Numbered from the stretch's first letter, positions 7,214 to 61,622 are shown. The stretch: DNA of 64,000 bases from an uncultured Pseudomonadales bacterium (GCA_964648715.1 CAZYNM010000002.1:25056-89055), one strand, 5' to 3'. The notes: a model not told the origin generated them from the letters alone. Translations and numbers: made by a program.

Positions 7214-7487
7214 AGGTTATGCACAGATGTGCATAACACTGTGCAGAACTACACAACAGCCTGTGAAAAAAAATAGTACTTATGCACTGCTTACACAGTT
7301 TTAAAAGTTGTTCACAAAATACTCCCCACATTGTGCACAGAGAAATACACAGATAGCACCAGGTCATATTCACAGGCTGTACACAGTAGTATTTCCAGAT
7401 GTATACTAGGGCATTCTCCACATTTTCCGACTGCCCTACTATTACTACAACTAATATATAGTAAGAAAAATAGAGAAAAGAACTTTC
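7202..7487. promoter_or_regulatory. oriC candidate (dnaA-dnaN intergenic): cluster of DnaA-box-like 9-mers plus AT-rich unwinding tract
   Basis: TTATGCACA at 7207..7215 and its inverted partner TGTGCATAA at 7218..7226 form a near-perfect palindrome TTATGCACAGATGTGCATAA. Further boxes: TGTGCAGAA at 7230..7238, TTATGCACT near 7280, TTGTTCACA near 7310, TTGTGCACA near 7332, TGTACACAG near 7378. AT-rich stretch ACTAATATATAGTAAGAAAAATAGAGAAAAG immediately upstream of dnaN. Confidence 0.6.
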
Positions 7488-8594
7488 ATGCAATTTCATA
7501 TACAACAAAAAGAATTAGAGCGTGCATTGAACTTCCTCCAAAAGGCAATTCCTGCTCGTCCACAATTGCCAGTACTTTCTGCTCTGCTCATTACCACTAC
7601 GAAAGATACGTGTAGTATTGCCGCAACAGATCTGTATTTTGGAGTACGGGTAACTATGCCAATTACTGAATCACAAGAGGGTTCTGTAGCTGTTCCGGGG
7701 AAAGAGTTCAGAGAACTTATTCAGTCTTTGCCTTCAACTGCAACTGTACAACTCACCTTGAATGAGAATACAGTGACTCTAACTGCTGGAAAGATTAGAT
7801 GCACGTTACAATGCCTGGATAGTAAAGATTATCCAGCTTTTCCAGAACTATCTGGTGAGACCATCTCACTCAGTAGTACATTACTTCAACAAGTTGTTAA
7901 GTATGTAACCCAAAGCACTTCGCTAGATCAAGCACGCCCGCTGCTAACTGGTATTCTCTTCTCTTTTTCTGATAGCACAGTCCGTTGTGTAGGAACAGAT
8001 GGCTTTCGTCTGTCTATTCTTGATGCTGAAAGTATGAGCTCTTATGCAGAATCATTTATATTGCCAGCCAAGACCCTTGCAGAAGCTGTTAGAATCATTG
8101 ACCAGTTATCAGTTTCAGAGGCTGTTTTGACCATCTCCAAGACCCTTAAACAAGTGTATTGCACAGCAGAGGGGGTTGAGATTTTTATGCGTTTGCTAGA
8201 AGGTGAATATCCTCCGTACCAAAAAATAATCCCTGTTACTCATGCTACAGAGCTAGTTGTGTCTGCAGAAGTTCTTATAGAACAAGTGAAACGGGCACTA
8301 ATCTACTCGCGAGATTCTTCAAGCGTGATTACTTTTTCTATAACAGAGCAACACTGCAGTATCTCAGCAACATCTTCCACTCTAGGTAACTACCATGCAG
8401 AAGTAGAAGAAGCTCAAGTAAAAGGTACTGATGTTACTATCTCATTTAAAGCAAAGTACTTGCTCGATTTTTTAAGTACAGTTCCTGATTCAGATATCTG
8501 GATGGGAATGAACGAAAGTCTCAAACCTGTGCTCTTCAAAGCACAAAAAGTGTCGAACCTCCAGTATGTTGTTATGCCCTTCCGAGTAACGTAA
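7488..8594 (+). CDS. dnaN: DNA polymerase III beta subunit (sliding clamp)
   Basis: MQFHIQQKELERALNFLQKAIPARPQLPVLSALLITT...; three-domain length of 368 aa; canonical position after dnaA. Confidence 0.9.
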   Translation: MQFHIQQKELERALNFLQKAIPARPQLPVLSALLITTTKDTCSIAATDLYFGVRVTMPITESQEGSVAVPGKEFRELIQSLPSTATVQLTLNENTVTLTAGKIRCTLQCLDSKDYPAFPELSGETISLSSTLLQQVVKYVTQSTSLDQARPLLTGILFSFSDSTVRCVGTDGFRLSILDAESMSSYAESFILPAKTLAEAVRIIDQLSVSEAVLTISKTLKQVYCTAEGVEIFMRLLEGEYPPYQKIIPVTHATELVVSAEVLIEQVKRALIYSRDSSSVITFSITEQHCSISATSSTLGNYHAEVEEAQVKGTDVTISFKAKYLLDFLSTVPDSDIWMGMNESLKPVLFKAQKVSNLQYVVMPFRVT

Positions 8595-15114: not shown

Positions 15115-17352
15115 TTATCCTGCCCAGGATGAAGTAATCAAAAATTCTTCACTTACCAGTCCAATAGTCTTTAATTCCTGCCAGACTGCTTCGGTTACAA
15201 AAGGAATAAAAGGGTGTAATAACCTGAGGAAGGTAATTAAAATCTGTGTTGTCGCTTGTGAAGAAATGGTGCCTGCTTTTTGTGCTTCAATACACTCATC
15301 ACAAAACCAATGCCAAAATTCGTTATAGAGCGTATCCGCTACTAAACCAACCTTGTGCTCAGTCATGTTCTCTGTGACTTCTTTAACGATAGTGTTCAGT
15401 TTAGTCAATGCTGCAGCGTCACCCGTATGTGGAGCAGAATCAGCTTCATTTTTCTGATTCTCTAATATACAAAATCGACTCGCATTCCACACTTTGTTGG
15501 CAAAATTACGCGCTGCTTTGAAATCCTGTTCTCCCACTGACTTGTCTTGACCTGGGGTAGAGCGAATGATAAGCGCTAGTCGTAGCGCGTCTGCGCCATA
15601 TTTTTCTACAATAGCCAAGGGATTAATCACATTTCCTTTGCTTTTACTCATTTTTTGACCTTTTTCATCACGAACTAACCCATGCAGATACACATCACTA
15701 AAAGGTGCTTTGTCGGTGAGGTAGATGCTCATGAGCATCATACGCATCACCCAAAAGGGCAAAATATCATACCCAGTTTCCATAACTGAAGTAGGGTAGA
15801 AACGTTCAAAATCAGTGGGTTTCCCCGTTTTCAATGTTACAACAGGCCATTGTGCAGAAGAAAACCAAGTATCAAAGGTATCTGTCTCTGGTAAATACTG
15901 CTTGTTTGTTTGTGGTGCTTTTACAGAAATAGAGTAGGGGACATCGTTATCTGCAAAAAGTTGTTGCAAACCGCTGATTACATCTGAAAGTGTGTGCGTG
16001 TGCAGAATGTCGGACAACACTCCTTGTTTGAGTTCTTGATCTTTGGTTATGAACGAAACAGTTATCTTATCCTCATATCCTTCTACTTCGTACCATACAG
16101 GAATACGAATGCCCCACACAATTTGTCTGCTAATGTTCCAATCCTTGAGGTTTTCTAGCCAATGACGCAGAATCTTTTCCCTACCTGCTCCCAAGACTCG
16201 CGTCTCTCCAGAATCAAGTGCGCTAAGTGCAGCTCGGGTTAAGCTTTTATGAGAATCATTTACTTTGATAAAAAACTGAGGGAGTGGAAGTGGCTCTAAA
16301 ACACGACCACAACGATAACATGTTCCAATTCTATTTTGGTATGTTGTATCAATTTTTTCTATACAACCTTTTGTAGTAAGATCTGCCACAACTGCTTCAC
16401 GAGCAGCCTTCGTTGAAAGTCCGGTATACACACCTGCCTGAGAGGTCATCTTACCTCTTCTATCCACGGCTACAATAATGGGCAGACCATGCTTTTTAGC
16501 AACAGCAAAGTCATTGAAGTCATGTGCTGGTGTTAGCTTCACAATGCCAGTTCCAAACTCTTGATCAACAAACTCGTCTGCAATTATTTGCATTGGTGCG
16601 TCAGTTAAGGGATTCTTAACTTTTTTACCAATGAGATGCTTCGTCTTGGCGTTATCGGGATGAACAGCTAGATGTGTGTCTGCCCAGATGGGCTCAGGAC
16701 GCGTAGTAGCTAGTGTAATATACTGGGTTGGAGCGTCTACAAAGAAGTATTTTATGTAATACAACTGTGTGGTTTGGTCAATGTGATTTACTTCAAGTTC
16801 AGAAAAAGAGGTACCACAGTTCACGCAAAAATTTACCAACTGTAAGTCTCGGTAAACAAGTTTGTCTGCAGCTAATTTTTTAAATGTATCAGTAACATAG
16901 GCAATTACATCGTCATCAAGCGTAAAGGTAAAACGGCTCCAATCTGCACTTGCTCCAAGTTTTTTTATTTGATTGACCGCAATATCTGAATTTTCTTTTA
17001 CATAGGACATAATGTTGTTAAAAAGCGTTTGGCGATCAAAGTCAAATCGTGACTGATTATTCTTCTTTAATTTCTTCTCGTACACAAACTGTGTTTCAAT
17101 ACCCGCATGATCTGTACCCGGTATCCACACTGTGGCATCACCAACCATACGATGAAATCGTGTTAATGCGTCTTCGATAGAAACAAACATTGCATGACCA
17201 ATGTGAAGAGGATCATTGGCATTAGGTGGTGGCATAATAATACAGAATGTTTTTCCTGTTCGTGCATGTGCAACAGGTGCGAAACAACCAGCCTGTTCCC
17301 AGGATGTATAGATGTGTGTTTCTTGTGAGATATGCTCAAAGCGAGATTCCAT
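15115..17352 (-). CDS. valS: Valyl-tRNA synthetase (compact form)
   Basis: Class I motifs: PPPNANDPLHIGHA (ValRS-type PPPNxxGxLHxGHA) and KMSKSKGNVI. At 745 aa it is shorter than proteobacterial ValRS; the C-terminal coiled-coil is presumably absent. Confidence 0.85.
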   Translation of the reverse strand: MESRFEHISQETHIYTSWEQAGCFAPVAHARTGKTFCIIMPPPNANDPLHIGHAMFVSIEDALTRFHRMVGDATVWIPGTDHAGIETQFVYEKKLKKNNQSRFDFDRQTLFNNIMSYVKENSDIAVNQIKKLGASADWSRFTFTLDDDVIAYVTDTFKKLAADKLVYRDLQLVNFCVNCGTSFSELEVNHIDQTTQLYYIKYFFVDAPTQYITLATTRPEPIWADTHLAVHPDNAKTKHLIGKKVKNPLTDAPMQIIADEFVDQEFGTGIVKLTPAHDFNDFAVAKKHGLPIIVAVDRRGKMTSQAGVYTGLSTKAAREAVVADLTTKGCIEKIDTTYQNRIGTCYRCGRVLEPLPLPQFFIKVNDSHKSLTRAALSALDSGETRVLGAGREKILRHWLENLKDWNISRQIVWGIRIPVWYEVEGYEDKITVSFITKDQELKQGVLSDILHTHTLSDVISGLQQLFADNDVPYSISVKAPQTNKQYLPETDTFDTWFSSAQWPVVTLKTGKPTDFERFYPTSVMETGYDILPFWVMRMMLMSIYLTDKAPFSDVYLHGLVRDEKGQKMSKSKGNVINPLAIVEKYGADALRLALIIRSTPGQDKSVGEQDFKAARNFANKVWNASRFCILENQKNEADSAPHTGDAAALTKLNTIVKEVTENMTEHKVGLVADTLYNEFWHWFCDECIEAQKAGTISSQATTQILITFLRLLHPFIPFVTEAVWQELKTIGLVSEEFLITSSWAG

Positions 17353-38884: not shown

Positions 38885-41005
38885 CTAAGGTGCCGGAGTA
38901 GGAGAAGGCTTTGCACCTTCAAGCTCACCGCTGAGGGTGGTTTTCTTATCAGCTGGCACATCATTACTCACAGGCGCTTTGATGACGCTGCTCTCATTCT
39001 CTCCAAGACTTTGATCTAAAATTGAGGGAGGTTTCTTACCGTCGCTTGTTTGTTGTTGCTGAGTCGTCCCAGCTTTCTTTGCAGCATTCTTTTCATCTTC
39101 TGCAACCAATTTATTGATCTGCTCAAGCTCTGCACTAACCTTCTTATATTCCTCTGTCTCAGTTCCAGTTGTGCTCTGCAAGAGGGTTACTAGAGTAGCA
39201 TAGGATGCTTGAGCTTCTTTATGCGCGCCCAACTGCATATAAGCATATCCAAGATTGTAGTAAGCATTGGGAAAATCCTGCTTTATATCAACAGCTTGCT
39301 GGAATATGGAAGCGGCTTGTTGATATTGCTTTTGGTCAAGAAAGATACCTCCTAATGCAATTCTTAAACCTGGATTGGTGGGGTCATTGTTAATTGCTTG
39401 AATATAGGATTGTACGGCAAATTGATCCGCTTGATCTACAGCTCCAATCATGTTTTTGTATACTTGTGCGAGTACTGCCCAATTTTCAACATCGAGCGAA
39501 TCAAGCAGTGTTGCAGAACGTGCTTCACGAACTGCCTGTTGAAGAAGTTGCGCAATCTGTTGCTTTTCCGCATCTGTTACATCTGTTTTACTCGAGAGTG
39601 ATGTCGCGATAAACATATTTGTCAAAGCATAATCGCGTCGCAAGACGTCAATGTATGGATTGAGTTGAATAGCCTTTTGTTGCAATTCATAGGTCTTCAC
39701 CACATCTTGAGCAGCGAGTGCTCTTGATGCTTGCATAACTGTGTAGCTTGCCAAAGCAAACTTACTGAAATGGTAACCACTGAACAGCACACCAATTAAA
39801 AGTACCCCACTCATAATAAATACGGGGAATGAGGCTTTCTGAGCAGTGGCTCCATGTACATGAGGAGAGTCAACTTCCATGGTCATTGTTAAGGCTTGGA
39901 GCTTGAAAACAGGAAGCTTCTCACTTTGTGCAGCAAAAAGAGCAGTTATCAATACAGCCTGAACAATAACTATACTCAGCGTAGTAGGGAATAAAAGTTG
40001 GAGTACAAACAGAGCTGCTACCATAGCTGCCACAGCTCTTGATGTACCTGTGTAAGCTTGGAACATACGAACACTCTGCCATGCAACTAAAGTCCATGTG
40101 GCAAGTCCGAAGAAGCCCATCGTTACAAGTAGCGTAAATGGGACGTTGCTTGCTTGTGAGAAAGGTACATTCCAAGTGCTGAGTGCGTTCAACCAAATTG
40201 GTTTAAATCGCAAATACAAATTTGAATATGATGATGCACCACCACCAATAAGTGCTGCTTTTGGTGAACGTATGGTGTCAAGTGCAATAGACCAGCTGCC
40301 TGTCCACGAAGCAGTAGTGACGGCACCAGGTTTTCCAGGTAATACTGTCCACAAATGGAGGACAATTCCCACAACAAGTATGGGAGTAACTGCGAGCATC
40401 CATTTACTAATATGTTTGTGAGAAATCGCATCTACAGCAATACCAATCATAGCAATGATCAGAATTTGCAAAGCAAAGAAGCTACTTCCTGCAAGACTAA
40501 ACCCAGTAGCACCTGTTGTGGGAATTGTGACACCGAAGAGTGCATTAAGTAATTGAACTGGTCCATAGCCAATCATTTGTGCTGCCAATGCAACAGTAAG
40601 TACAACACCAATCGCGCCAAGCATTGGAAGCACTTTCTTGGCTAAGCCGGAACTCGCTACACTTCCACCTAAAAGGCTCATGATGACCAAAGCCATATAT
40701 GCGCCACCAAATCCCAACACTGCCTCTACAGGATAATTATTGGTGAAAAATGTAGATGCGGTAGCTGCAAGCCCAAACAAAAAGAGTGGCAAAGTAAGAG
40801 GTGAGATCTTAACCTCAATAGTTTTTTTGCTGAGGGTGTAAAAAATATATACTATCGCAGTAAGGAGTGTGCCAACTACAAAAAAAGCATACTTAGAAAA
40901 GAAGACAAAGTTATCAAAAAGAGGAACAACTGCCAACACACCCAAGACAAGCGTTGTGAGCAACACACTATCAATTGTTTTCTTGAGCATGTTTGTGGTA
41001 ACCAT
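38885..41005 (-). CDS. Polytopic membrane protein (>=10 TM helices) with C-terminal TPR repeats; O-antigen-ligase/Wzy-like architecture
   Basis: N-terminal 450 aa are continuous TM helices. C-terminal region has TPR-like repeats (AYYNLGYAYMQLGAHKEAQASY; WAVLAQVYKNMIGA...) and a Lys/Pro-rich tail. Confidence 0.5.
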   Translation of the reverse strand: MVTTNMLKKTIDSVLLTTLVLGVLAVVPLFDNFVFFSKYAFFVVGTLLTAIVYIFYTLSKKTIEVKISPLTLPLFLFGLAATASTFFTNNYPVEAVLGFGGAYMALVIMSLLGGSVASSGLAKKVLPMLGAIGVVLTVALAAQMIGYGPVQLLNALFGVTIPTTGATGFSLAGSSFFALQILIIAMIGIAVDAISHKHISKWMLAVTPILVVGIVLHLWTVLPGKPGAVTTASWTGSWSIALDTIRSPKAALIGGGASSYSNLYLRFKPIWLNALSTWNVPFSQASNVPFTLLVTMGFFGLATWTLVAWQSVRMFQAYTGTSRAVAAMVAALFVLQLLFPTTLSIVIVQAVLITALFAAQSEKLPVFKLQALTMTMEVDSPHVHGATAQKASFPVFIMSGVLLIGVLFSGYHFSKFALASYTVMQASRALAAQDVVKTYELQQKAIQLNPYIDVLRRDYALTNMFIATSLSSKTDVTDAEKQQIAQLLQQAVREARSATLLDSLDVENWAVLAQVYKNMIGAVDQADQFAVQSYIQAINNDPTNPGLRIALGGIFLDQKQYQQAASIFQQAVDIKQDFPNAYYNLGYAYMQLGAHKEAQASYATLVTLLQSTTGTETEEYKKVSAELEQINKLVAEDEKNAAKKAGTTQQQQTSDGKKPPSILDQSLGENESSVIKAPVSNDVPADKKTTLSGELEGAKPSPTPAP

Positions 41006-41099: not shown

Positions 41100-41585
41100 A
41101 TGAAAAAAAAGACATCAGCTGGCATGACGCTCATTGAAGTTATGATTGTAGTAGGCACTCTTGTTGTCCTGATGACTGCACTTATGGTGAGCATTCTTCC
41201 TGCACTAGCTAAAGGAAGAGATGGAAGAAGAAAAGCAGATTTAGAACGTATTTCCAAAGCCCTTGAAGAGTATTATAACGATAATGGGGGATATCCAGCA
41301 TCCTTAGATACCTGTGGGAGGGGCACTGTCTTAGCTCCGTACCTCGCTGATGTGCCTTGTGATCCCATTACGAAAGAGGAGTACACCTATTATGTAAATA
41401 CTGATGATCAATGTACTCCTTTGTGTAGAAGTTACACCCTTTACACAAACCTTGATAATAAAAAAGATCCTCAAATTGAAAAAATAGGCTGTGGGGGGGC
41501 AAGTGGATGTTATACATCTGCACCACCCTCAAATACTAAATATAATTATGGTGTTGCATCTTCTAATAGATCGGTGAAACGGTAA
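41100..41585 (+). CDS. Type IV pilin / pseudopilin (prepilin-type N-terminal cleavage/methylation domain)
   Basis: MKKKTSAGMTLIEVMIVVGTLVVLMTAL: G|MTLIE class III signal peptide; Cys-rich C-terminal domain. Confidence 0.75.
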   Translation: MKKKTSAGMTLIEVMIVVGTLVVLMTALMVSILPALAKGRDGRRKADLERISKALEEYYNDNGGYPASLDTCGRGTVLAPYLADVPCDPITKEEYTYYVNTDDQCTPLCRSYTLYTNLDNKKDPQIEKIGCGGASGCYTSAPPSNTKYNYGVASSNRSVKR

Positions 41586-41608
41586 ACAAAATGTGCTACA
41601 ACTATAGT

Positions 41609-42142
41609 ATGCGGACAAAACGCGGTTTTACCCTTATAGAACTGTTGGTAGCTATAACCATACTGGGTGTTTTGGTATCGGTGGGATTAGGGGCTTTTGC
41701 TTCTTCCCAGAAGAAGGCTCGAGATTCTAAAAGAAAAACTGATCTAGAAAGCATCTCAAGAGCAATGGAGTTGTACTATAACGACTGCGGTGCATATCCC
41801 ACTACAAGTGGCTCGGGTGATATTGTTGGTTGTGGAAATACTGGAAGCTGTAATACGAGCGCTGCCACATGTACCCCCGGACAACAATGGATACGAAATG
41901 GCATTATTTATATGCAGGAACTACCTTCTGACCCACTTGGCAATTACTATTATGATTGGTCATCTAGTGGCTATGTTTTGTATGCTCGTTTAGAGAACAC
42001 CAGTGATAGCGCTGTGCCTCATTCTGGAGGCACGCCACTTGGATATAAAGATATTTGGTGCAGAGTCAGCCCTCATGATCAATGTAATTATGGATTAGCT
42101 GGTCCAGGGGCAAGCGTGAGCACGCTAACAGTGGTTGACTAG
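41609..42142 (+). CDS. Type IV pilin / pseudopilin
   Basis: MRTKRGFTLIELLVAITILGVLVSVGL (G|FTLIE). Track ORF starts 18 nt earlier (MCYNYS...), but the ATG at 41609 gives the canonical short leader. Confidence 0.75.
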   Translation: MRTKRGFTLIELLVAITILGVLVSVGLGAFASSQKKARDSKRKTDLESISRAMELYYNDCGAYPTTSGSGDIVGCGNTGSCNTSAATCTPGQQWIRNGIIYMQELPSDPLGNYYYDWSSSGYVLYARLENTSDSAVPHSGGTPLGYKDIWCRVSPHDQCNYGLAGPGASVSTLTVVD

Positions 42143-42145
42143 ATT

Positions 42146-42577
42146 ATGAAAAAGATAACGCAACTGAATGGCTTTACACTAATCGAGGTGCTCGTAGTAA
42201 TTTCTATCATTGGTATTCTTGCCTCGTTTATTTTACCCAACCTACTGGGAATGCGGCAGCGTGCAGCTGACACCAAAACAAAAAATAATATGAATCAGTT
42301 TAAGAACGCGCTCAGATTATATTATAATGATAACCAAGCATATCCAGATGTGGCAAGCGAAACAGACTGCAACGCAGCCTCATTAACATCTGCCCTGGCT
42401 CCTTATATCGACACAGATAATATTCCACTCGGTTGCAAGTATCTTGATCAAGACTCAGCAAATGGCTTTTATGCCTATGTTTCACTTGCTACAAGTGCAG
42501 GTACTGAGGATACAGAAAGTGCTGACCAATGTGGAAGAACGTCAATTGACCAGAGATATTATGTATGCGGCAAGTAG
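42146..42577 (+). CDS. Type IV pilin / pseudopilin
   Basis: MKKITQLNGFTLIEVLVVISIIGILASFILPNL (G|FTLIE). Confidence 0.75.
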   Translation: MKKITQLNGFTLIEVLVVISIIGILASFILPNLLGMRQRAADTKTKNNMNQFKNALRLYYNDNQAYPDVASETDCNAASLTSALAPYIDTDNIPLGCKYLDQDSANGFYAYVSLATSAGTEDTESADQCGRTSIDQRYYVCGK

Positions 42578-43047
42578 GTTTTACTCTCATTGAGATACTT
42601 GTGGTTGTAGCAGTAATTGGTGTATTGACTGCTGTTCTTCTTGTTAATATCACAAGCATACGTGAACGTGCTGCTGATACTAAAAAAATTCAAAAACTCG
42701 AGCAGTTTATGTTTGCGCTGCGTATGTATTACAACGATAATAAAAAATATCCTGAGACAGGTGGGCCGCAAAATGCGCGTAATATTACTGGAGCATCAAG
42801 CATATATATGAAGAAGTACTTTGGTGAGCTTATGTATTACAATCGTTTGCTTTCTCATAGGAATGCAGCAAATGAAATGCAGTTTGATGCAGTTGTGGCC
42901 TGCATAGTCGTTTCCAGTTCAAGCCAAAAAGAGATTGAGAGGTCGCAGGCAAAGTGCTTCCCCAATGGCATAGATGCAAACCAGGACAACGAACTTACTA
43001 TCTACAACTGCCGTAAGGCCACTTGCTACTGTGACTGTATCTTCTAG
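42565..43047 (+). CDS. Type IV pilin / pseudopilin
   Basis: MRQVGFTLIEILVVVAVIGVLTAVLLVNI (G|FTLIE). Overlaps the preceding pilin gene by 13 nt; Cys-rich C-terminus. Confidence 0.7.
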   Translation: MRQVGFTLIEILVVVAVIGVLTAVLLVNITSIRERAADTKKIQKLEQFMFALRMYYNDNKKYPETGGPQNARNITGASSIYMKKYFGELMYYNRLLSHRNAANEMQFDAVVACIVVSSSSQKEIERSQAKCFPNGIDANQDNELTIYNCRKATCYCDCIF

Positions 43048-56400: not shown

Positions 56401-59400
56401 CACAGACTTGGTTATTTCCTTGGTAGATGGTTGTGCCATAAATATTGTTCCATCTCAGGGCATTTGATCCAAGGTCATAGGTGGCGCTTGCTTGTGGTCC
56501 AACACCCCCCTGCACTTGTACTTTGAAACCTGTAGCAGCTGTGGTGCCAATTCCCAAATTGCCTCCAGCTGAAACAAGTGTTGAGGTTCCGCTTGATGTG
56601 TTGAGAACATTATTGCCCGCACCGGTGGTAACAGAGTCATAAAAGTAAAAGCCAGAAGTTGCATCGGTATCGACATGCGCATACGTCGCATTCTGTGCAC
56701 CAATACGGACAAACTTTCCAGAAGATACTAAGTTCAGTGGATACTGTGATGTGGCACCTAAGTCGACATGAAGCGCATAGGCTGGTGCAGTCGTCCCAAT
56801 ACCAACACTTCCTCCAACTTGTCTGATGGCTGTTGCACTATAGTACGCAGTAGGAGCAGCAACACTTGAAGTAGAGGTTGATGCAGTAAAGCTATCTGTG
56901 TGGATGCCTTCTTGTCTAATGACAACATACGCTGTGCCAGCTGTGGAACCTGCCGTGCGGCGTATTCTCAAAGATGTAGTCCCGTTATTGACGTTTACAT
57001 CAAGATCAAAATCATTTGATGAGTACACACCTGTGTCACTGATAGGTTGTGCAATCACCCAGGTATTAGTTGTTTCGTTATATGCAATAGGGATGTTGTA
57101 TTCTTTTGCTACAGAAAACGAGCCGCTTGGTACCGTGATTGAAACCCAGAGAGAAGCCCCACCATTTGTAAAGCTAAAAGAACCAATGTCTACAACATCA
57201 TTCACCACTGTTGGCATGGTGCGAGTCATAGTCCGGGTTCGAGCATTGTTCTGTAGAATATCGCCCGCGACTTGGAGTGTTTCTGTAGGGTTAATGGTCC
57301 CTATGCCAAAATTACCATTACTAAGTAACGTTAGTTTACTCACCAGGCCAGCGTCACCACCAGGTGATGTTTGAATGTCGAGGCGGTTACCGTTGAGGAT
57401 ATCAATTGTTGATGGGTTGGTGCCTCTTAACACAAGAGAGCCAGAAGCGGATGCATCTCCTATAACATCAAGCTTCGCTCTGGAGACTGTAGTACCAATA
57501 CCAACGTTCCCTTCTACAAGTAGTCCTTGAGTAGGAGGAGTAGTTGTTAGGTATGTTCCAGATCCAATTCCAACACCTCCCGCAGCATTGATTGCCATTC
57601 GTACATTACTATACCCGCTGGTATAAAAGCGTAGATTGGTTGCTTGATCGGTCCCCATTTCGAATACACCAGAGTTTCTGGGGAAGTAAGAGAAAATTGG
57701 ATTGGTGGTACTGTAGGTATCATTGTAGATTTGGGCGGCATAGGGTGTTTCACTGGGTGCATGAATGCCCAGTGCAGTAACAGATCCGGTAGCTTTTACT
57801 TCTAGTGTATGGGTGGGAATCGTCGTTCCTATACCAATATTGCCGTTATTATTGATGTAGAGACGTGAGTTTGTTACTGCATCACCACCAACTGATGTGC
57901 GGAAGTTAAAGGTACCGCCATTATAGGCAGTGAACGTAGTAGCAGGATTGGAACCAGTTGGAGACGCAATAGCAAGGGTACCTGAGATGGAGGCAGTGGG
58001 TGTGCCACTATTTACATTGATAAAAGCGAACTTTGCTGCACTTGTTGCATTGCTACCTAAGAGGAGATCTGCTACACCCGCATATTCAGCTCTTGGGTGT
58101 AGCGCGTTCTGAGTATTATCCCACCACCCAATGTCATACAGAGTATTCCCATCTACCCATTGGGTGGCACTACCGGTGCTTTTGAGCACATACCCATTTG
58201 TTCCGACTGAGTTGGTGCTGTCATACAATCCACCTACTAGACGCATATTGTTCTGGACATGCAGAGACTGAGTAGGGCCAGTTGTTCCTATGCCCAAGCT
58301 TCCTTCAAAAATCGCATTGTTTGCGCCCGGATTAGTTGAGTAGTAGGTACTTCCAAAAGAAAGCCCTCCGGCTGCACTTATCTGCATTCTGTTTGTATTG
58401 TTGGTATAGAAGCGCAATGGGGAGTTTGAACTTAAACCAAGATATCCATCAGAGGAAGTTACACCCTGCTCAAGTGTATGGGTGGTATTAGTAACTGTTT
58501 CTTGTACCGTTCCCGAAGTCCCGTAGAGAACGAGCTTTGTGTTGGGATTTGTGGTGCCCAATCCAAGATTACCGTTATTTAGTATCGAAACTTTACTCGC
58601 AAGGCCCGCATCGCCCCCTGGGGAGGTATTGATATCAAGCCGCTGCCCATCAAGTACATCGATTGAAGAAGTTCCTGTTCTGAGTACAAAACTTCCAGAT
58701 ACAGATGCGTCTCCTGCTGCATCAAGAGTAGCTCTTGTACTCGTTGTTCCAATGCCGATATTGCCCGTGGCAGAAATAACACCCAAGGTACTTCCTGCGC
58801 TTGATTGCCATTTAACAATATCCGCTGTCGCGCTGGGGCCAGCTTTGAGGGTGAGGGCAGTGCCTCCAGCATAGGTTGCAGATAGCGTCGCTCCTGGTGC
58901 ACCGATATAATCTCGAGCAATGATTTGTCCGAGACCGTCTGGGTCAAGCACAATGTTGCCGTTTGATCCAGATGTCGTCTGCAGGTTGAGCGTCGTTCCC
59001 TCGAGAGTGAGCGAAGTGCTAGAAGCCTTTAATTTGGGCGTTGCTCCACCGAGTACTACCTCACCACTGTTATTCATAACAACCACCGTATTTGCGGTGG
59101 CGGGGTCTGCAGGTGGAAATCCTTGAAGTGTTTCAGAGTTGAGTGCGTATGCGACACTTTTAATGCTTTGACGGGGAGAGAGAGTCTCAGCACCTACTTC
59201 AACCTGTAACCATACGTTTGCATTCTCACTAAAGACGCTGGAGGCAATCTCTGTTCCACAATCTGAGCCAAGACCGGAAGAAAAAATGCCGTCTTGGTCG
59301 GGCGTAATGCTGCATGTGCCAGAATCCCATAACTGTGTGCCGCTTCCAGTCCCGGGACCTGAATCATAGAGACGGAACCTAAAGTTTGTAGCTGCTGTGA

Positions 59401-60328
59401 TAGGGTTTTGTGCTGTATCAGTCAAACGGCCTTGAAAAGAAAGCGTTCTATTGGGTCGCGTAAGTGTACTGGGGAATGCGAGTGGCTTATCTGGAGTAAC
59501 AATAAACTGTTGATAGCCAAAATAACTAAATGAAATCAAAAAGAGTAATATCATCGCTACATTTGCATAGCGAGTAATAAAAGAATCACCCTTCTTTTGA
59601 AGAGACTGCTGTAATAATCGTGCGTTTTCTTTGATGATTTGAGTGTATTCTTGTGATTTATTTGCCTTTTGTTTGTGTGTTAGATCTCCCTGAGGAGAAA
59701 GAAGCGCACTTAGTGAGAACCGCTTGCGTAGGCCACTGATAACTCGATCTCCTCTTAAGTCATGAGGTTGCTCATCATGACTGAGATTCTCTAACCAAGA
59801 ATAAGTACCGGCTGTGACAACACCTAGTGTTTCTAGCCATAAGCTAAATTGGGCTAGGCTCACTAATTTGCGTTTAATTGTAGCTCCCGCCAAGTTGCTG
59901 CTTCTTTGAGAGCGGATAAACTCGAGGACTTTTTGTTTAGTTAGGGTTTTTGTTAGTTCTGCTGATTTAGAAAATTCAATAAATTGATTGATATCACTGC
60001 GATAATTTTTTATGGTTGATGTTGAGCAGTTGGCAGACTTAAGTGCTAATAGGTATTCTGAGAGGAAGACATCCATCTGGGAAAGGGAAAATGAACTCAC
60101 AAACTGAGTCACACTGGTACACGCATTTTCAGAGAAGGAATGCTTCTTGGCTAGCTCTTGAATACAAGATGCTGGCTCTACAAAATCTGTTACAGAAACT
60201 AGTGAACGTAGTACAGTAACGAGAAGCGCATGTGCTTCTTCAAAACGAGAATCATCAACACCTATGGTCTTCATGAATGTAGAAAACAGTTTGCGGACGC
60301 TGGTGATATACAGTTCCTGGGCAGTCAT
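44432..60328 (-). CDS. Giant (5298-aa) repeat-rich fibrous cell-surface protein: N-terminal cytoplasmic integrase-SAM-like domain, single TM helix, >4900-aa extracellular tail-fibre-like repeat region, C-terminal coiled-coil-like segment
   Basis: A single uninterrupted 15,897-nt ORF. TM helix ANVAMILLFLISFSYFGYQQFIV (aa ~255-277). At least 25 copies of GN(I/V/L)GIGTTxP...L(D/H/Q)V. Several module families each repeated 3-5 times (e.g. VAGDASASGSLVLRNTTISTIDMLNGGRLDFQTSPGGDNGLAAK...; PRNEFxxVxDxxIGGTxTxSAxFRVTGxGNGTTNLxGYxYAxRYLDxDxxNYYxEPGNTxTAG). Recurrent QVCDxSGNCS Cys pairs. Confidence 0.85.
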   Translation of the reverse strand: MTAQELYITSVRKLFSTFMKTIGVDDSRFEEAHALLVTVLRSLVSVTDFVEPASCIQELAKKHSFSENACTSVTQFVSSFSLSQMDVFLSEYLLALKSANCSTSTIKNYRSDINQFIEFSKSAELTKTLTKQKVLEFIRSQRSSNLAGATIKRKLVSLAQFSLWLETLGVVTAGTYSWLENLSHDEQPHDLRGDRVISGLRKRFSLSALLSPQGDLTHKQKANKSQEYTQIIKENARLLQQSLQKKGDSFITRYANVAMILLFLISFSYFGYQQFIVTPDKPLAFPSTLTRPNRTLSFQGRLTDTAQNPITAATNFRFRLYDSGPGTGSGTQLWDSGTCSITPDQDGIFSSGLGSDCGTEIASSVFSENANVWLQVEVGAETLSPRQSIKSVAYALNSETLQGFPPADPATANTVVVMNNSGEVVLGGATPKLKASSTSLTLEGTTLNLQTTSGSNGNIVLDPDGLGQIIARDYIGAPGATLSATYAGGTALTLKAGPSATADIVKWQSSAGSTLGVISATGNIGIGTTSTRATLDAAGDASVSGSFVLRTGTSSIDVLDGQRLDINTSPGGDAGLASKVSILNNGNLGLGTTNPNTKLVLYGTSGTVQETVTNTTHTLEQGVTSSDGYLGLSSNSPLRFYTNNTNRMQISAAGGLSFGSTYYSTNPGANNAIFEGSLGIGTTGPTQSLHVQNNMRLVGGLYDSTNSVGTNGYVLKSTGSATQWVDGNTLYDIGWWDNTQNALHPRAEYAGVADLLLGSNATSAAKFAFINVNSGTPTASISGTLAIASPTGSNPATTFTAYNGGTFNFRTSVGGDAVTNSRLYINNNGNIGIGTTIPTHTLEVKATGSVTALGIHAPSETPYAAQIYNDTYSTTNPIFSYFPRNSGVFEMGTDQATNLRFYTSGYSNVRMAINAAGGVGIGSGTYLTTTPPTQGLLVEGNVGIGTTVSRAKLDVIGDASASGSLVLRGTNPSTIDILNGNRLDIQTSPGGDAGLVSKLTLLSNGNFGIGTINPTETLQVAGDILQNNARTRTMTRTMPTVVNDVVDIGSFSFTNGGASLWVSITVPSGSFSVAKEYNIPIAYNETTNTWVIAQPISDTGVYSSNDFDLDVNVNNGTTSLRIRRTAGSTAGTAYVVIRQEGIHTDSFTASTSTSSVAAPTAYYSATAIRQVGGSVGIGTTAPAYALHVDLGATSQYPLNLVSSGKFVRIGAQNATYAHVDTDATSGFYFYDSVTTGAGNNVLNTSSGTSTLVSAGGNLGIGTTAATGFKVQVQGGVGPQASATYDLGSNALRWNNIYGTTIYQGNNQVCDTSGNCSAIGNFWQYVNGAISPSSPYTNNSDVLIGGNATTSAKFAFMNVMSGTPTASISGNLAIASPTGSNPTTTYTAFNGGSINFRTSVGGDAVTNSRLYISNNGNIGINSTSPGARLNVYDSLATGTNLVLSNIQSAPVNGGGSTISRVTAGTNTSDFEQNNSSTSPFRYGTYIDTNIVNNYTAAGGLFGSINFVTNNAVGMTLTGGNAAGNLGIGVTAANVRAKLDVAGDASASGSLVLRSTTFSTIDMLNGGRLDFQTSPGGDNGLAAKVSLLSNGNLGVGTTAPLAKLQVFDVSSGNFRFANGAFAEYYQAEANPRFQIGRDGAGSGQAAISFGPGGASTLAADGAAVGYAAADTLGLYTSNNTALTERMRIDGAGNISIGTTTTSNGRLQVAGDTYVATTGFTFTNPTAGADLYVQSNIEADGSIYGASVYQYQSGTAYQVCDSSGNCSNAGLWQNNQNALHPRNEFGQVADLLIGGTATLSAEFRVTGQGNGTTNLPGYVYAKRYLDIDDTNYYVEPGNTGTAGVFAGSVGIGATPSQQLTITGSFLANNAASRIAAGSAGYLSRVGIYSSPTFTDSSTTVYGVNSQATVNNTNSSYHAYYESLAVGSGATITDVYGIRITDPTGAGAITNNYGIYIDSLAKGSSLDYAIYSAGTNTPSYFAGNIGFGTSTINNKIELADHTAVTGGIGFGSDVDLYRSGTDTLSIATGDNFAIGGTTVLTSGRILQTANGNAGSPAQTFSSDATTGSFLPSSGNFAISTGGTEQVRVSNLGNVGIGTTNPSTFKLQVNGSIGPQTNNSYDLGSNALRWATVYATSFKQAGNDVCDSSGNCTTSGLWARTDNVYHPRNEWGEVVDVTVGGTSTASAGFRVTGKGNGTTNLSGYTYARRYLDVEDANYYVEPGNTTTAGVLAGNVGIGTTTTSNARTTIESTGTQLRLNYSGAVYANVSTDTNGYLTLNSTGNRVSLDGSGTYYLSENAAASNLHSLILNRSAGTGYTTPDIYGASGGIVIGGLSGATGTVAINTSGTATPTLISSGGSIGVGTNSPGQTLDVQSTGTASIRSFGPTNPYLRAQDSTNNVITKLQALDTFGYAGTESNHSFGIISNNTQRIYVDAAGNVGINDGSASSFKLQVGGDVGPSATTTYNLGSNSLRWNNIYGTALYQGNYQVCDLSGNCSNAGLWQNNQNAFHPRNEFASVADVLIGGTSTASAKFAFTNIAAGSPTASISGNLALTVPTGSTPGSTLDILDDGTLNIRQSPGGNAGLTSRIFIASNGNIGIGNITTPAQSLDISGNLRVRGNLITDSGDATRLTLGSTTTLSNSTTTLSGTSTITASSLATFTTNATLGMTSTTALNLGNSAVITLGASATGGTLNGSSGSDGDLVIQGTSHTTRTSSYVNIQPSGGNVGIGTTTPSSVLEIAGTTLPAFEVAGTQLMRYKYGPQTYNVANAPMVLKYADSTGGGYGTASFMIYFKARDDSNIQLDEVWYFGTQAQYNSNGYAYTMQRISGTKKVRAYEVTNSGANLEIQWTLTDDDRAAAAGNFDDSVEVTVMEVLSGHGEGHRGTFSVVDWATKSMSGSEINNGGNAHATFGGTGTNWFMGSVGIGTTAPTQGLHVAGNARITGALYDASNSPGSNGYIFTSTGTGTSWINPETLLDSGWWDNTENVLHPRNEYGAVSDLAIGGTSTVAATFRVTGSGNGGSNLSGYVYAKRYIDIDSQNYYIEPGLTSTSGLFAGSVGIGTTTASQKLTVAGSSNTENYVGIGDTSERLKIGYGHATGVVDNVLPAQIIVDSTGHLILSSRTNSASGIQFYTNAGTDGVERMRIDTAGNVGIGTTIANAKLDVAGDASASGSLVLRNTTISTIDMLNGGRLDFQTSPGGDNGLAAKLTLLNNGNIGIGSIAPIAKLDVNGNTNITGNLDVSSGVDVSGADITGGTGVQIDFADEVTDKIYWYSTNYGTGIESSTLTNWSASTFRWRVGGTSASSGTAELELNGTALQPATNNGLNLGTASLKYGTGYFNTSVDSPLYTYAGNLDISATGANAVRFNTNGSLKWSVLSGGQLESNGASTIRTSTGNLTLATNAGNGHIILSPNGTGNVGVGSTTPTAKLDVAGDASASGSLVLRNTTVSTIDMLNGGRLDFQTSPGGDNGLAAKLTLLNNGNTGIGTTGPTNTLDVNGTLRVRTYGAGTTTAVCKDGSGVLTDCSGSFVTGSGVTNRVARWTGTGSIGTGVLWDDGTNVGVGDTTPSGLLTVGSSDNFVVDSNGRLRLNSATESFGSYVLSFDTGATSFNSAGSIYGIKGTVSNSNTGNVTAGYFYAQSTGSGTIPTAIGVDTGIKLNNAGGTISTAVGLNANSPAVTAGAITNAVGAYIWPQDVSGVGTGYGILQAGSADINTFAGNVGIGTTGASYKLDTQVAAGSANIFRAGQTGVSNGLTITTNGTSLDYNVLSGNTTFDASAVANVGSIYLRNSTNYSASRNNYLINLLGSMAGRLINRNAEMLDGTTGYTVYDNSAGGKTTLSAVASTTAPNTSGQALRISYNGTGTPNSNPNPGYGGFYASIPVCGGTNNGVNTYCYREGNRYVVRIWANIPSGRSLYYANNAYGTGGNYQWLTSQAGTGNWQEYIIVQTIGTGGTLSTIGFWYVDSGSNAAFTWDVASVHVTGVDESPSVETASNLNVGYYQGKNLAYGELTTSQGAFLALSGGNVGIGTTTANNGLHIRKDETAGSPWTGQLYIEPVSNDAHAAISLKTTMTGTDRVWSIIAGNGTPSTNLRIYDSTAGADRINIDSNGYVGINTTNPLTTFNVVGAAKSASDTNSVTTSNASIYGTGNRTAGNGAALAFASAANTDGTNIWDQARILGAADNSSNGDASGRMYLQTRYYTGAAWDWRNNLVLLSSGNVGVGTTSTSGRLQVDSGSSSEVALVLKQSVSANYPDIFCQNNVGSSTLCEFTSGMFNNGGTLYNAGSLIQRGTISNDTAAHLTIAGGTSGRTYFSGNVGIGTTVPNTNLNVYGANTTFQIASTTTAQRGMYYSESNNNLYIGGSSTQDGNINVLNLSAVTAVTLNSAGDSYFNGGNLGIGTTSTVGKLDIRGATRSGTHTNTQTMYVTGTMQSGQTGGGTGNIEFRHDNATQGIGFGYNTIYQAGTNTNQDLNFLSKGTSPITLNAYAYSSGNVGVGTTGPTAKLHVYGSSTTFQVSNTTTTQVGMWYGEGGNDLYIGGGSTQDGDINIKDLSGNIDVKLSANSATVSYFNSGANVGIGATSASQKLDVAGQIQFDIDTANDTTIGVCKNTADGTSTATEFRECNGTPSDIAEFYRAEAGLRPGDVVSLTEISGVPTLVSSSSIQGASVFGVVSTFPVGQFGKPLGHELYSSTENPVAIGLAGRVPVRVNLSNGPISAGDALTESSTPGVAAKAIRPGKIIGYAIESFNENSPIVSTGTREQEALRANNIAKFNAEPIDPTDQGEGKILLYVHAGYYYPNMIFGSEGELVFNGTGQSNYTITAQQNGTVLSNIIAAAQVMSAKMKTSFLQTRELFVSERASVANLDATTLTTQVATVSGSLHAEIATVDQLSTQDLSVAGTLTATGQSQLGVLLAESASISGSLTAQTASISGELIAQNLTISGSTRLAQIEAQQAQLMAVQATTAELFDATVSGTLYAQNIADLDAKIASAIQQPNFIDLLTGNEPTPPPAANPISVYEPVSSAGYTPVNPTFFAEHEGVSLVTGDVLIDSAAVFVRKYLEVNGVAYVTKALGIGETLQIGAGTIITDGVIAYTGTSPATTVLQIQPSGTGKVEILAGLITLQNGTATIAGDLTIAGKTKTNTLLTNLIQPADFGNPFQVQVAGISTQSGELKKSRFEIINELGTPVATISAEGKANFAGGIGVGSEEIAVPSVASGSSVTVSAQKTSGKAKVPAGTSEITIESESITDTSLIYVTPVGSTQNQVLYVKSQTTENISTSEKEGKFVVGFDAAVSGDVSFNWWIVN
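49900..50066. repeat. Intragenic direct repeat copy A (~165 bp) within the giant gene
   Basis: tcccgttgttgagtagggtaagtttggcggcaagaccattatcaccacccggtgaggtttggaagtcaagtcttccaccattgagcatatcaattgtactga... About 96% identical to copy B at 50700..50866. Confidence 0.8.
50700..50866. repeat. Intragenic direct repeat copy B (~165 bp)
   Basis: Near-identical to copy A (differences such as gagtaggg/gaggaggg, gacggtgg/gatggtgg, accagtg/actagtg); 800 bp downstream of copy A. Confidence 0.8.
55585..55730. repeat. Intragenic direct repeat copy C (~145 bp, ~90% identity to A/B)
   Basis: cctttgcggcaagaccattgtcaccacccggtgaggtctggaagtcaagtcttccaccattgagcatatcaattgtactgaatgtagtactgcgtagtaccaatgagccagaagcagatgcatcacctgccacatcaag. 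More diverged copies occur near 57340 and 58600. Confidence 0.7.
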
Positions 60329-60863
60329 GATGAATATTTTTCTTGCAGCTCTTGTCTTGTGTCTAATCCAGATTGATTAGACTATTTTTTCTCAACAAGT
60401 TACAGTGTACGGATTTCCTCAAGTACAAGTCAAGAAGTCATACATAGTCAAAAAACGCCAGTTTTTCACATTGCAAGTTTCTCTGGTATCAATGCAGAAA
60501 AAAGAACACTTTTCACCTTTTTCATGAATATCAATCAATATCAAACAAAGCTAACTATGAAAAAAATTGAAGCAAAGAGTTGCATAAATGATGTATTGTT
60601 GACTAATAATCTAGGCTGTTGAAATGTGTTTTTTTTTGAAGTATAGTAATCAAAAATTAATAATACATATAAAAAACATCTGCGCATGCCTTTAAAAGTT
60701 GTTTTTTATCCACAGCTTAATCACCATTTATTAAAAAGTAGATGGATTCGTGTTGAATGCACAAGTTTGCCGCAACTCATGTGTCATTTTGAGTAGTTGA
60801 TATTTATGAATAAAAAGAAGTAAATATACTAAATTCGAGTTATTTTCGCATATATACTAGAGT

Positions 60864-61622
60864 ATGGCCCTAAAACAAAACACATTAAAAGTGCTTCTCG
60901 TACTTGCTGCAACAAGTTCTACAGAGGCTCAAGGCTTACCAAGCCCCATAATTAAAGCGCTTCTCCCAGATATAACCATAACGGGAACTAGATCTCTCTT
61001 GGTTCTCTTAGTGCGTAAGAAACTTATTTACAAACGTAGGGTGTTTGGAACTACTACGTTTCACATTTCTGAGCAAGGACAGCGCAGCTTAAATACAGCA
61101 TTTCCGGCTTTACATGCAACCTGGCACGATTGGGACGGTAGCTGGGTTGTAGTGGTCTTTTTAGACGCGCCTAAAGGTGACTCACAGTTTCGTTACCTAC
61201 GTAAACTCATTCTTAGTCATGCGGGTATGCAAGTAACTAGAGGTATGTATGCAAAAGCGGGAGGGTTTGCTCCTGAAGTATTGGCTCAGCTACAGAACAC
61301 ATACCTGGGGCATGTTATTATTTTTTCGGTCTTTAAGTGGATTCAAGGCTTTGATAAGCCTGTAGTATTTGAATACTACAACCTACCAGATAAGGCAACG
61401 GCCTTGTCTGGAATTAGCAATGAAGTTAATGAACTGCTAAATATTATCAATAGAGAAAAAAGATTGACTGAGAAACAAAAAATTAATATAGTTACTCTTG
61501 TTGATCGGTTTATCGATTTCTTGAGGGAAGATCCCGGATTTATTCATTATTATTTTCCAGGCACACCAGATGAAGGTGAGTTACTAGCAAATATCGGCAC
61601 ACTGTTATCCTTATGGGACTAA
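60864..61622 (+). CDS. PaaX-like winged-helix transcriptional regulator (tentative)
   Basis: WDGSWVVVVF (PaaX WDGxW), YLRKLILSHAGMQVTRGMYAKAG (PaaX LRxxLxxxGFGxLxxGVWISP-like) and C-terminal LREDPGFIHYYFPGTPDEGELL (PaaX DPxLPxxLLPxxWPG-like). Stand-alone gene between AT-rich spacers. Confidence 0.4.
   Translation: MALKQNTLKVLLVLAATSSTEAQGLPSPIIKALLPDITITGTRSLLVLLVRKKLIYKRRVFGTTTFHISEQGQRSLNTAFPALHATWHDWDGSWVVVVFLDAPKGDSQFRYLRKLILSHAGMQVTRGMYAKAGGFAPEVLAQLQNTYLGHVIIFSVFKWIQGFDKPVVFEYYNLPDKATALSGISNEVNELLNIINREKRLTEKQKINIVTLVDRFIDFLREDPGFIHYYFPGTPDEGELLANIGTLLSLWD

Follow-up and report, generated by a model that had tools for sequence, protein, structure and literature searches.

Among the genes of the host-dependent, ultra-small bacteria of the Patescibacteria, or candidate phyla radiation (CPR), few are as conspicuous or as poorly understood as those for giant surface proteins. 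The 64,000-nucleotide stretch of DNA considered here in full and termed the window (GCA_964648715.1, CAZYNM010000002.1:25056-89055), which is filed under an uncultured Pseudomonadales bacterium, carries such a gene, and the organism appears to be an ultra-small member of the Patescibacteria/CPR. The product, referred to as the giant protein (identical to database protein P0003), is laid out as a cytoplasmic head, one transmembrane (TM) helix and an ectodomain of ∼5,000 residues that is rich in G, T, S, A and N. An initial annotation had placed the core-binding (CB, or SAM-like) domain of tyrosine recombinases in this head at positions 59806-60067, which correspond to residues 88-175, and the reading frame encodes exactly the peptide that was quoted for them. 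The features of the locus are collected in Table 1.

Table 1. Features of the window, with positions counted from its first nucleotide and residues from the first residue of the giant protein.
Feature	Position	Strand	Basis
dnaA	5744-7213		
DnaA boxes, three within 55 bp, between dnaA and dnaN	7217-7225, 7228-7236, 7262-7270		
dnaN	7488-8594		
Polytopic membrane protein, 706 aa, ∼9 hydrophobic segments, C-terminal TPR	38885..41005	minus	Pfam/NCBIfam, hydropathy
Pilin-like genes (four) of T2SS-G type with N-terminal methylation motif, beyond the 3′ end of the giant gene	41100..43047	plus	Pfam
T/P/A-rich open reading frame (ORF), 442 aa, N-terminal hydrophobic segment	43059-44387	minus	faint Ig-like matches
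Giant gene, 15.9-kb ORF, 5,298 aa	44432..60328	minus	ORF list
Membrane-proximal β-sandwich ectodomain, residues 278-400	59129..59497	minus	AlphaFold2 (AF2), family identity
Single TM helix (signal anchor), residues 250-277	59498..59581	minus	hydropathy, AF2 helix 250-277
Basic juxtamembrane helix, residues 222-249	59582..59665	minus	AF2 helix 222-247
Linker, disordered and variable, residues 177-221	59666..59800	minus	AF2 confidence, identity
CB (SAM-like) four-helix domain, tyrosine-recombinase type, residues 86-172	59813..60073	minus	Pfam, fold matches
N-domain, family-specific, four-helix, cytoplasmic, residues 1-82	60083..60328	minus	AF2 helices
Leader element GTCTAAT(C/G)AATCTGG, in the window a perfect palindrome with 8-bp stem, 54 nt before the ATG	60361-60382	minus	
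Predicted promoter TTGACT-N18-TACACT	60433..60404	minus	consensus scan
Predicted PaaX-like regulator, 252 aa, winged-helix N-terminus and Cas2-like middle	60864..61622	plus	orthologue profiles
Ig-like protein (Big_13/CarboxypepD_reg), 636 aa	62045..63955	minus	Pfam

The identification of the CB domain is borne out by profile searches, structure prediction and fold comparison. When the first 300 residues were scanned with hmmscan, the integrase model Phage_int_SAM_1 matched residues 90-165 with 33.0 bits (gathering cut-off 22.3, E = 7e-8) and was covered over profile positions 2-79 of 83, and Phage_int_SAM_4 gave 31.9 bits against a curated cut-off of 27.0. Both remained above cut-off when 2,500 residues were scanned at once, and SAM-like families were the only Pfam families matched across all 5,298 residues. 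A sequence search of the PDB returned 3nrw, the N-terminal domain of a Haloarcula integrase (E = 0.0027). The AF2 model, which comprises residues 1-290 and was based on an alignment of 34 family members, is confident in the head, with a predicted local distance difference test (pLDDT) score of ∼92-97 over residues 1-180, and the CB domain is modeled at pLDDT ∼95 as a four-helix bundle (helices 84-98, 103-120, 131-143 and 148-168).

The high-probability matches of this model to the PDB in Foldseek were to CB domains only. These include 3nrw (probability 1.00, root-mean-square deviation 1.9 Å over 87 columns, TM-score 0.71 on the target), lambda Int in 1z1g (probability 0.99, 1.8 Å over 85 columns) as well as 5j0n, the integrase-like domain 2kd1 and the integron integrase 2a3v, and phage integrases were matched at high probability among the viral models of BFVD, for example at 1.3 Å over 81 columns. 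The E-values of the whole model are weak (at least 0.07) because the query also includes the N-domain, the linker and the TM helix. Judged by these profile and model matches, the segment is a genuine CB four-helix domain of the type found in the N-terminal half of tyrosine recombinases. It is preceded by the N-domain, with predicted helices at 3-22, 26-42, 52-62 and 67-79 (pLDDT 80-97), and followed by the linker, in which pLDDT falls below 50 over residues 192-219. The N-domain was also considered as a degenerate second CB copy and this was rejected, as hhalign gave a probability of 4% against the SAM-like domain.

Tyrosine recombinases have a catalytic domain with an RKHRH pentad and a tyrosine nucleophile (PMC8138268). 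No Pfam match to Phage_integrase or to another catalytic domain was found in the 5,298 residues of the giant protein, nor was a catalytic domain found in a Pfam scan of 10 distant relatives. Since the defining domain is absent, the giant protein is not a tyrosine recombinase. The NCBIfam models for XerC, XerD and XerA match over their first ∼95 profile positions only, with 37-39 bits against cut-offs of ∼330, and the similarity to recombinases is therefore limited to the N-terminal domain. NCBI names some relatives 'phage integrase N-terminal SAM-like domain-containing protein' and calls P0017, P0107 and P0007 (MBT3249409.1, HEV2339978.1 and MCB9813502.1; 2,671-5,205 aa) 'site-specific integrase'. 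Such source names, carried by several family members, would speak for a working site-specific integrase, but with no catalytic domain in the protein or in the 10 relatives, with Xer similarity confined to the first ∼95 model positions, and with everything beyond residue 277 predicted to be extracellular, that reading is scarcely credible. The label 'site-specific integrase' on these membrane proteins is a mis-annotation, one that is systematic and can inflate mobile-element marker counts in CPR genomes.

The topology that had been claimed for the protein, with a cytoplasmic N-terminus, one TM helix and a huge ectodomain, agrees with hydropathy, with the AF2 model and with the distribution of charge. 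Residues ∼250-277 are the sole strongly hydrophobic segment of the protein, which has no N-terminal signal peptide, and the TM helix bears the family motif N-L-A...F..GLG.FGYQQF. Over 34 homologues, lysine and arginine average 4.2 in the 20 residues before this helix and 0.6 in the 15 residues after it, a 'positive-inside' bias by which the N-terminus is cytoplasmic and the ∼5,000 residues past the helix lie outside the cell. If translation instead started downstream, the TM helix would act as a signal peptide and the head would not be produced, which would be in keeping with the absence of a strong Shine-Dalgarno sequence before the ATG at 60328. This is very improbable, however, as the M-[TPS]-A-[QHR] start, the 80 residues that precede the CB domain and indeed all 250 upstream residues are conserved as protein, no internal methionine is conserved (neither Met85 nor Met259 of the window protein is kept in orthologues), and the model of the head is confident.

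Beyond the membrane, the β-sandwich is predicted with pLDDT >90 for model residues 21-110, corresponding to protein residues ∼298-387, and searches of the PDB with it yielded generic Ig/macroglobulin-like folds only and no informative relative. It carries a motif, LSFQGRLTD...PDQDGIF...WLEV...PRQ.I..V.YA.N, for which there is no Pfam model. The ectodomain consists of 13% G, 13% T, 10% S and 8% N; it has no Pfam match, and a BLASTP self-comparison of the giant protein found no internal repeats at E ≤1e-5. It plausibly forms a fibre. In some distant relatives Pfam detects the intramolecular-chaperone domain Peptidase_G2, which is typical of phage tail-spike and fibre proteins.

The same layout defines a large family. 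A word-indexed search returned two relatives with it, one carrying two tandem CB-like domains, and a pattern scan of 185,579 species genomes found 26 loci in Patescibacteria-type metagenome-assembled genomes (MAGs). The records of these loci are labeled Pacebacteria, Woesebacteria, Patescibacteria group and, in many cases, 'Pseudomonadales' (one with the isolate name 'PATE-15'); the last label is implausible for these MAGs, the gene content and isolate names of which look Patescibacteria-like. The match sits right at the beginning of the open frame in each of the 26 loci, the complete frames encode 1,307-3,320 aa and the others reach the end of the available DNA, and one TM helix follows the match (L012 stops before it). 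A further 11 weaker loci from other phyla are ordinary recombinases, which are 303-473 aa long and have HxxR close to their C-terminal end, and their recognition indicates that the methods tell real recombinases from the giant family.

When 1.84 billion cluster representatives were searched exhaustively with HMMER, 671 matched at E<1e-3 and 109 at E<1e-10. Layout was analyzed for the 149 newly returned representatives among the best ∼150 of the 671. The CB-like domain begins within the first 160 residues in every one of them and is present in two copies in 64; 78 are at least 1,000 aa and 20 at least 4,000 aa long, with a maximum of 7,697 aa, and only P0149 (306 aa) resembles a plain recombinase. 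Two canonical SAM-like domains, with up to 114 bits in Pfam, are present in the 10 distant relatives. In the family layout, one CB-like domain or two are followed by a variable linker, then by the conserved TM helix and the highly conserved β-sandwich, and lastly by an ectodomain that varies and can reach ∼7,400 aa. Among the genomes scanned, and with taxonomy as labeled in the records, the family was seen only in Patescibacteria-type MAGs. No relative was found among 2.9 million viral contigs, and a phage origin is accordingly unsupported.

The initial annotation had offered two explanations, that a recombinase N-domain was recruited as a cytoplasmic module or that a recombinase gene fragment was fused in frame to an adhesin gene. 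Conservation of the architecture at 22-40% identity supports the first as far as recruitment goes, and because the layout is conserved in the 26 loci and in nearly all of the ∼150 representatives, a fusion or junction artefact is rejected. For the role of such a module the annotation had proposed anchoring or partner binding, to which retained DNA binding is an at least equally likely alternative. An accidental fusion, mis-assembly or decaying pseudogene would have in its favor the unusual combination of domains and nothing more, and it is virtually untenable when the architecture is collinear in 26 independent loci, when the CB domain is more constrained than its flanks, and when the same tools single out ordinary recombinases by their length and HxxR motif. 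The statement that the module is normally found only in XerC/D-type recombinases has to be qualified, as in Patescibacteria it heads a large family of membrane proteins that are not recombinases. Full-text searches of the literature turned up no paper in which a CB domain forms the cytoplasmic head of a giant membrane protein, and this is hence a known fold whose architectural setting is widespread, constrained and as yet undescribed.

Constraint is distributed very unevenly along the protein. In the 34-member alignment, mean pairwise identity is 18.7% in the N-domain, 44.7% in the CB-like domain, 12.6% in the linker, 15.1% in the juxtamembrane helix and 38.8% in the TM helix, reaches the family maximum of ∼62% in the first ∼130 extracellular residues and declines further out in the ectodomain to 33% and then 23.5%. 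The conserved core of the family is thus the CB-like domain together with the TM helix and the first ectodomain. Within the CB-like domain, T105, N108, Y109, S111, D112, R153, K154 and W164 are invariant; T105, Y109 and D112 belong to the recombinase signature and N108, S111, R153, K154 and W164 are family-specific. The polar ones (T105, N108, S111, D112, R153 and K154) form stripes on the second and fourth helices, and in Cre and XerD/Xer complexes it is the second and fourth CB helices that enter the DNA major groove. The CB domain of the window protein has a net charge of +5, and the mean over 176 family CB-like domains is +4.95 (92% are positive); the N-domain is about neutral.

The neighborhood of the giant gene is also conserved. 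Toward its 3′ side, and ending at the giant gene, the window has in order a LysM-M23 peptidase, Obg, the 706-aa TPR protein, the four pilin-like genes and the 442-aa ORF, and on its 5′ side a 535-bp AT-rich intergenic region, the divergent 252-aa gene and the 636-aa Big_13 protein. Neighborhood counts cover 28 loci, in 27 of which an orthologue of the 252-aa gene lies directly upstream of, and divergent to, the giant gene. Taken alone, the copy in the window scores 13.7 bits against the PaaX_M cut-off of 24 (E = 0.068), but 23 of the 28 orthologues match PaaX_M, with a best E of 5e-7, and there are weak PDB profile matches to winged helix-turn-helix proteins and to PaaX (8a39), such that the gene is predicted to be a PaaX-like regulator once its orthologues are counted. 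The Ig-like Big_13 protein is present in 24 loci, as well as in L041, and the pilin-like arrangement is repeated in L006, L020, L024 and L041. The distant member P0059 (7,697 aa) keeps the whole gene order except for the 442-aa ORF. That ORF begins 44 nt past the giant gene stop on the same strand and has no BLAST match in related loci.

The 706-aa polytopic protein is matched in Pfam/NCBIfam by TPR models only, and its N-terminal part matches no family. A TPR membrane protein of ∼690 aa directly follows distant two-CB relatives (L040, 14092-16182; L042, 7269-9320), and such a protein is linked even to a 392-aa 'short' CB member with almost no ectodomain. It is possibly a membrane partner of the giant protein or, alternatively, a glycosyltransferase-like enzyme that acts on the S/T-rich fibre. 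L042, which is the locus of the short two-CB relative P0110, also has the DNA-uptake genes ComEC (Competence and Lactamase_B) and ComEA (SLBB and HHH_3) at 644-2322, ∼4 kb upstream. These com genes adjoin a leucyl-tRNA synthetase gene, one of which is present in the window at 15115-17352, and this may be coincidence.

The region upstream of the giant gene contains a predicted promoter and a short conserved element. The leader element is found ∼50 nt before the start codon in 15 of the 28 loci, often preceded by a second (A/G)TCTAA(C/T) copy, and the full promoter-plus-element pattern is present in six. A promoter-like TTGAC-N17/18-TACACT followed by the leader element was noted upstream of the giant gene in L001, L003, L004, L006, L008, L010, L011, L013, L015, L016 and L018-L020. 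The element could be an operator or a 5′-leader RNA element; the leader and intergenic region match no Rfam family, and the intergenic repeats are low-information A/T-rich pairs only.

A perfect DnaA box is present in the AT-rich intergenic region at 60706-60714, and DnaA-box-like sequences (TGTGGAWAA / TTATCCACA) occur ∼330-540 nt upstream of the giant gene, at the PaaX-like end, in ∼20 of the 28 loci, some of which carry an oppositely oriented pair spaced by ∼210 nt. A second intergenic motif, TATGTGAA(G), is present in 19 of the 28 loci and absent from the window. The intergenic region was considered as a replication origin and rejected, as dnaA-dnaN with its three boxes at 7217-7270 is the obvious oriC and the DnaA-box counts in the window are not above chance. 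The cumulative GC skew has its minimum near 12-14 kb of the window. If the origin is at dnaA/dnaN, the giant gene (minus strand, 37-53 kb rightward) is on the lagging strand and head-on to replication. Just upstream of dnaA is a TraG/VirB4-type P-loop ATPase (P-loop_TraG, AAA_10; 3655-5655, plus strand), beside which are unannotated ORFs and a CarboxypepD_reg protein (1418-2611).

A conserved DNA-binding-type fold as the cytoplasmic head gives a concrete handle on how the fibre is linked to the cell interior, and it points to a possible coupling of host contact with the chromosome or with gene expression. We tentatively propose, by analogy with ToxR and CadC, that the head may bind DNA while tethered to the membrane and so couple the surface fibre to the chromosome. 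The head would retain the ancestral activity of CB domains and bind duplex DNA, and its tethering would provide the coupling to the fibre, with the TM helix and the β-sandwich as the transmission unit. The most concrete candidate target would be the promoter-proximal region of the giant gene itself, with its conserved repeat/palindrome, where the adjacent PaaX-like repressor may act alongside the head. A DNA-binding head is favored because the CB domains of recombinases bind recombination site DNA (PMC8138268), the domain stays basic across the family and its conserved polar residues are on the helices that contact DNA, and also because the topology is of the ToxR/CadC type and the promoter-proximal element is a candidate site.

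Several considerations weigh against a DNA-binding head. Positive charge beside a membrane fits lipid contact too, and T105, Y109 and D112, being common to recombinases, could have a structural role only. A CB domain on its own, lacking the catalytic half of the C-shaped clamp, might bind to DNA only weakly. The leader element might just as well be an operator for the PaaX-like protein or a feature of the RNA, and its strict form is confined to 15 of the 28 loci. In addition, the most distant two-CB relatives have no PaaX-like neighbor.

Nearly as likely is that the CB fold serves, without binding DNA, as a cytoplasmic module for protein docking or oligomerization. The head might dimerize or cluster the fibre, or dock on a membrane complex such as the syntenic TPR protein. 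It might also sequester the PaaX-like regulator at the membrane, in a manner similar to Mlc/PtsG or to an anti-sigma factor, so that engagement of the fibre then controls transcription. Recombinase tetramers, too, have protein-protein contacts made by their CB domains, and this view would account for the tandem CB copies in 64 of the 149 representatives, for a TM helix so unusually conserved as to suggest intramembrane contacts, and for the TPR membrane protein that remains adjacent even in distant and short relatives. The near-constant adjacency of the PaaX-like gene (27 of 28 loci) is a further point in its favor, but this is equally explained by ordinary cis-regulation of the giant gene, and docking leaves unexplained why the domain remains basic across the family and why its most conserved polar residues are on the helices that contact DNA in recombinases.

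Another possibility, and quite an unlikely one, is that the head is a non-regulatory tether that binds DNA, or the nascent mRNA, non-specifically and holds the nucleoid or the transcribing gene at the site of export or attachment. The CB-like domain is basic, the export substrate is very long and the locus is origin-proximal (∼37 kb separate the 3′ end of the gene from dnaA/dnaN and the cluster of DnaA boxes), but the invariant polar residues point to a specific ligand over generic electrostatics. The proposal of a DNA-binding head can also be taken further, to an undescribed class of Patescibacteria proteins in which a catalysis-free CB domain reads specific chromosomal sites, for example its own leader repeat, and is coupled mechanically or proteolytically through the TM helix and the β-sandwich to a host-contact fibre several thousand residues long. 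In this full form it is speculative and on balance unlikely; if true, it would represent a direct device for surface-contact-to-DNA signaling or tethering in organisms that have very few conventional signaling systems.

Of the known systems, the membrane-bound one-component regulators ToxR, CadC and TcpP share with the giant protein a cytoplasmic N-terminal domain of DNA-binding type, a single N-in TM helix and an extracytoplasmic C-terminal domain. They differ in having an OmpR-type winged helix and a small periplasmic sensor where the giant protein has a CB fold and a chain of several thousand residues, and the comparison serves as a working analogy only. The OmpR-type winged helix is absent from the giant protein, which has no Pfam match to Trans_reg_C. 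The giant surface proteins and adhesins, such as Ebh, the SiiE/RTX type and those of Omnitrophota, are similar in that their extracellular chain, which is G/T/S-rich and repeat-poor or β-rich, is very long and anchored to the cell, and they are often encoded by the largest gene of a small genome. The giant proteins of Omnitrophota have N-termini with signal peptides and C39 or S8 peptidase domains (bioRxiv 10.1101/2023.11.21.568195); the words 'integrase' and 'recombinase' do not occur in that report and an architecture with a CB head is not mentioned.

The stand-alone domains 3nrw and 2kd1 from structural genomics are the best structural and sequence matches and correspond to the CB-like domain alone, but they are soluble fragments or domains without an assigned role and not the heads of membrane proteins. 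Also close are the simple tyrosine recombinases XerC, XerD and XerA (PF02899, PF13495), with which the giant protein shares the four-helix fold (1.3-2.1 Å over 72-92 columns) and the signatures T..xY..D(I/L)..F on the second helix and R(K/R)L S.. F..W/YL on the fourth. Even tandem CB domains have a precedent in the RitA recombinases (PMC8138268). Where these enzymes have their catalytic domain, the giant protein continues with the linker, the TM helix and an extracellular chain of thousands of residues, and it has in addition an 80-residue N-domain and the family-specific residues N108, S111, R153, K154 and W164. It provides a clean case of exaptation, in which the CB domain of a recombinase has been moved away from recombination.

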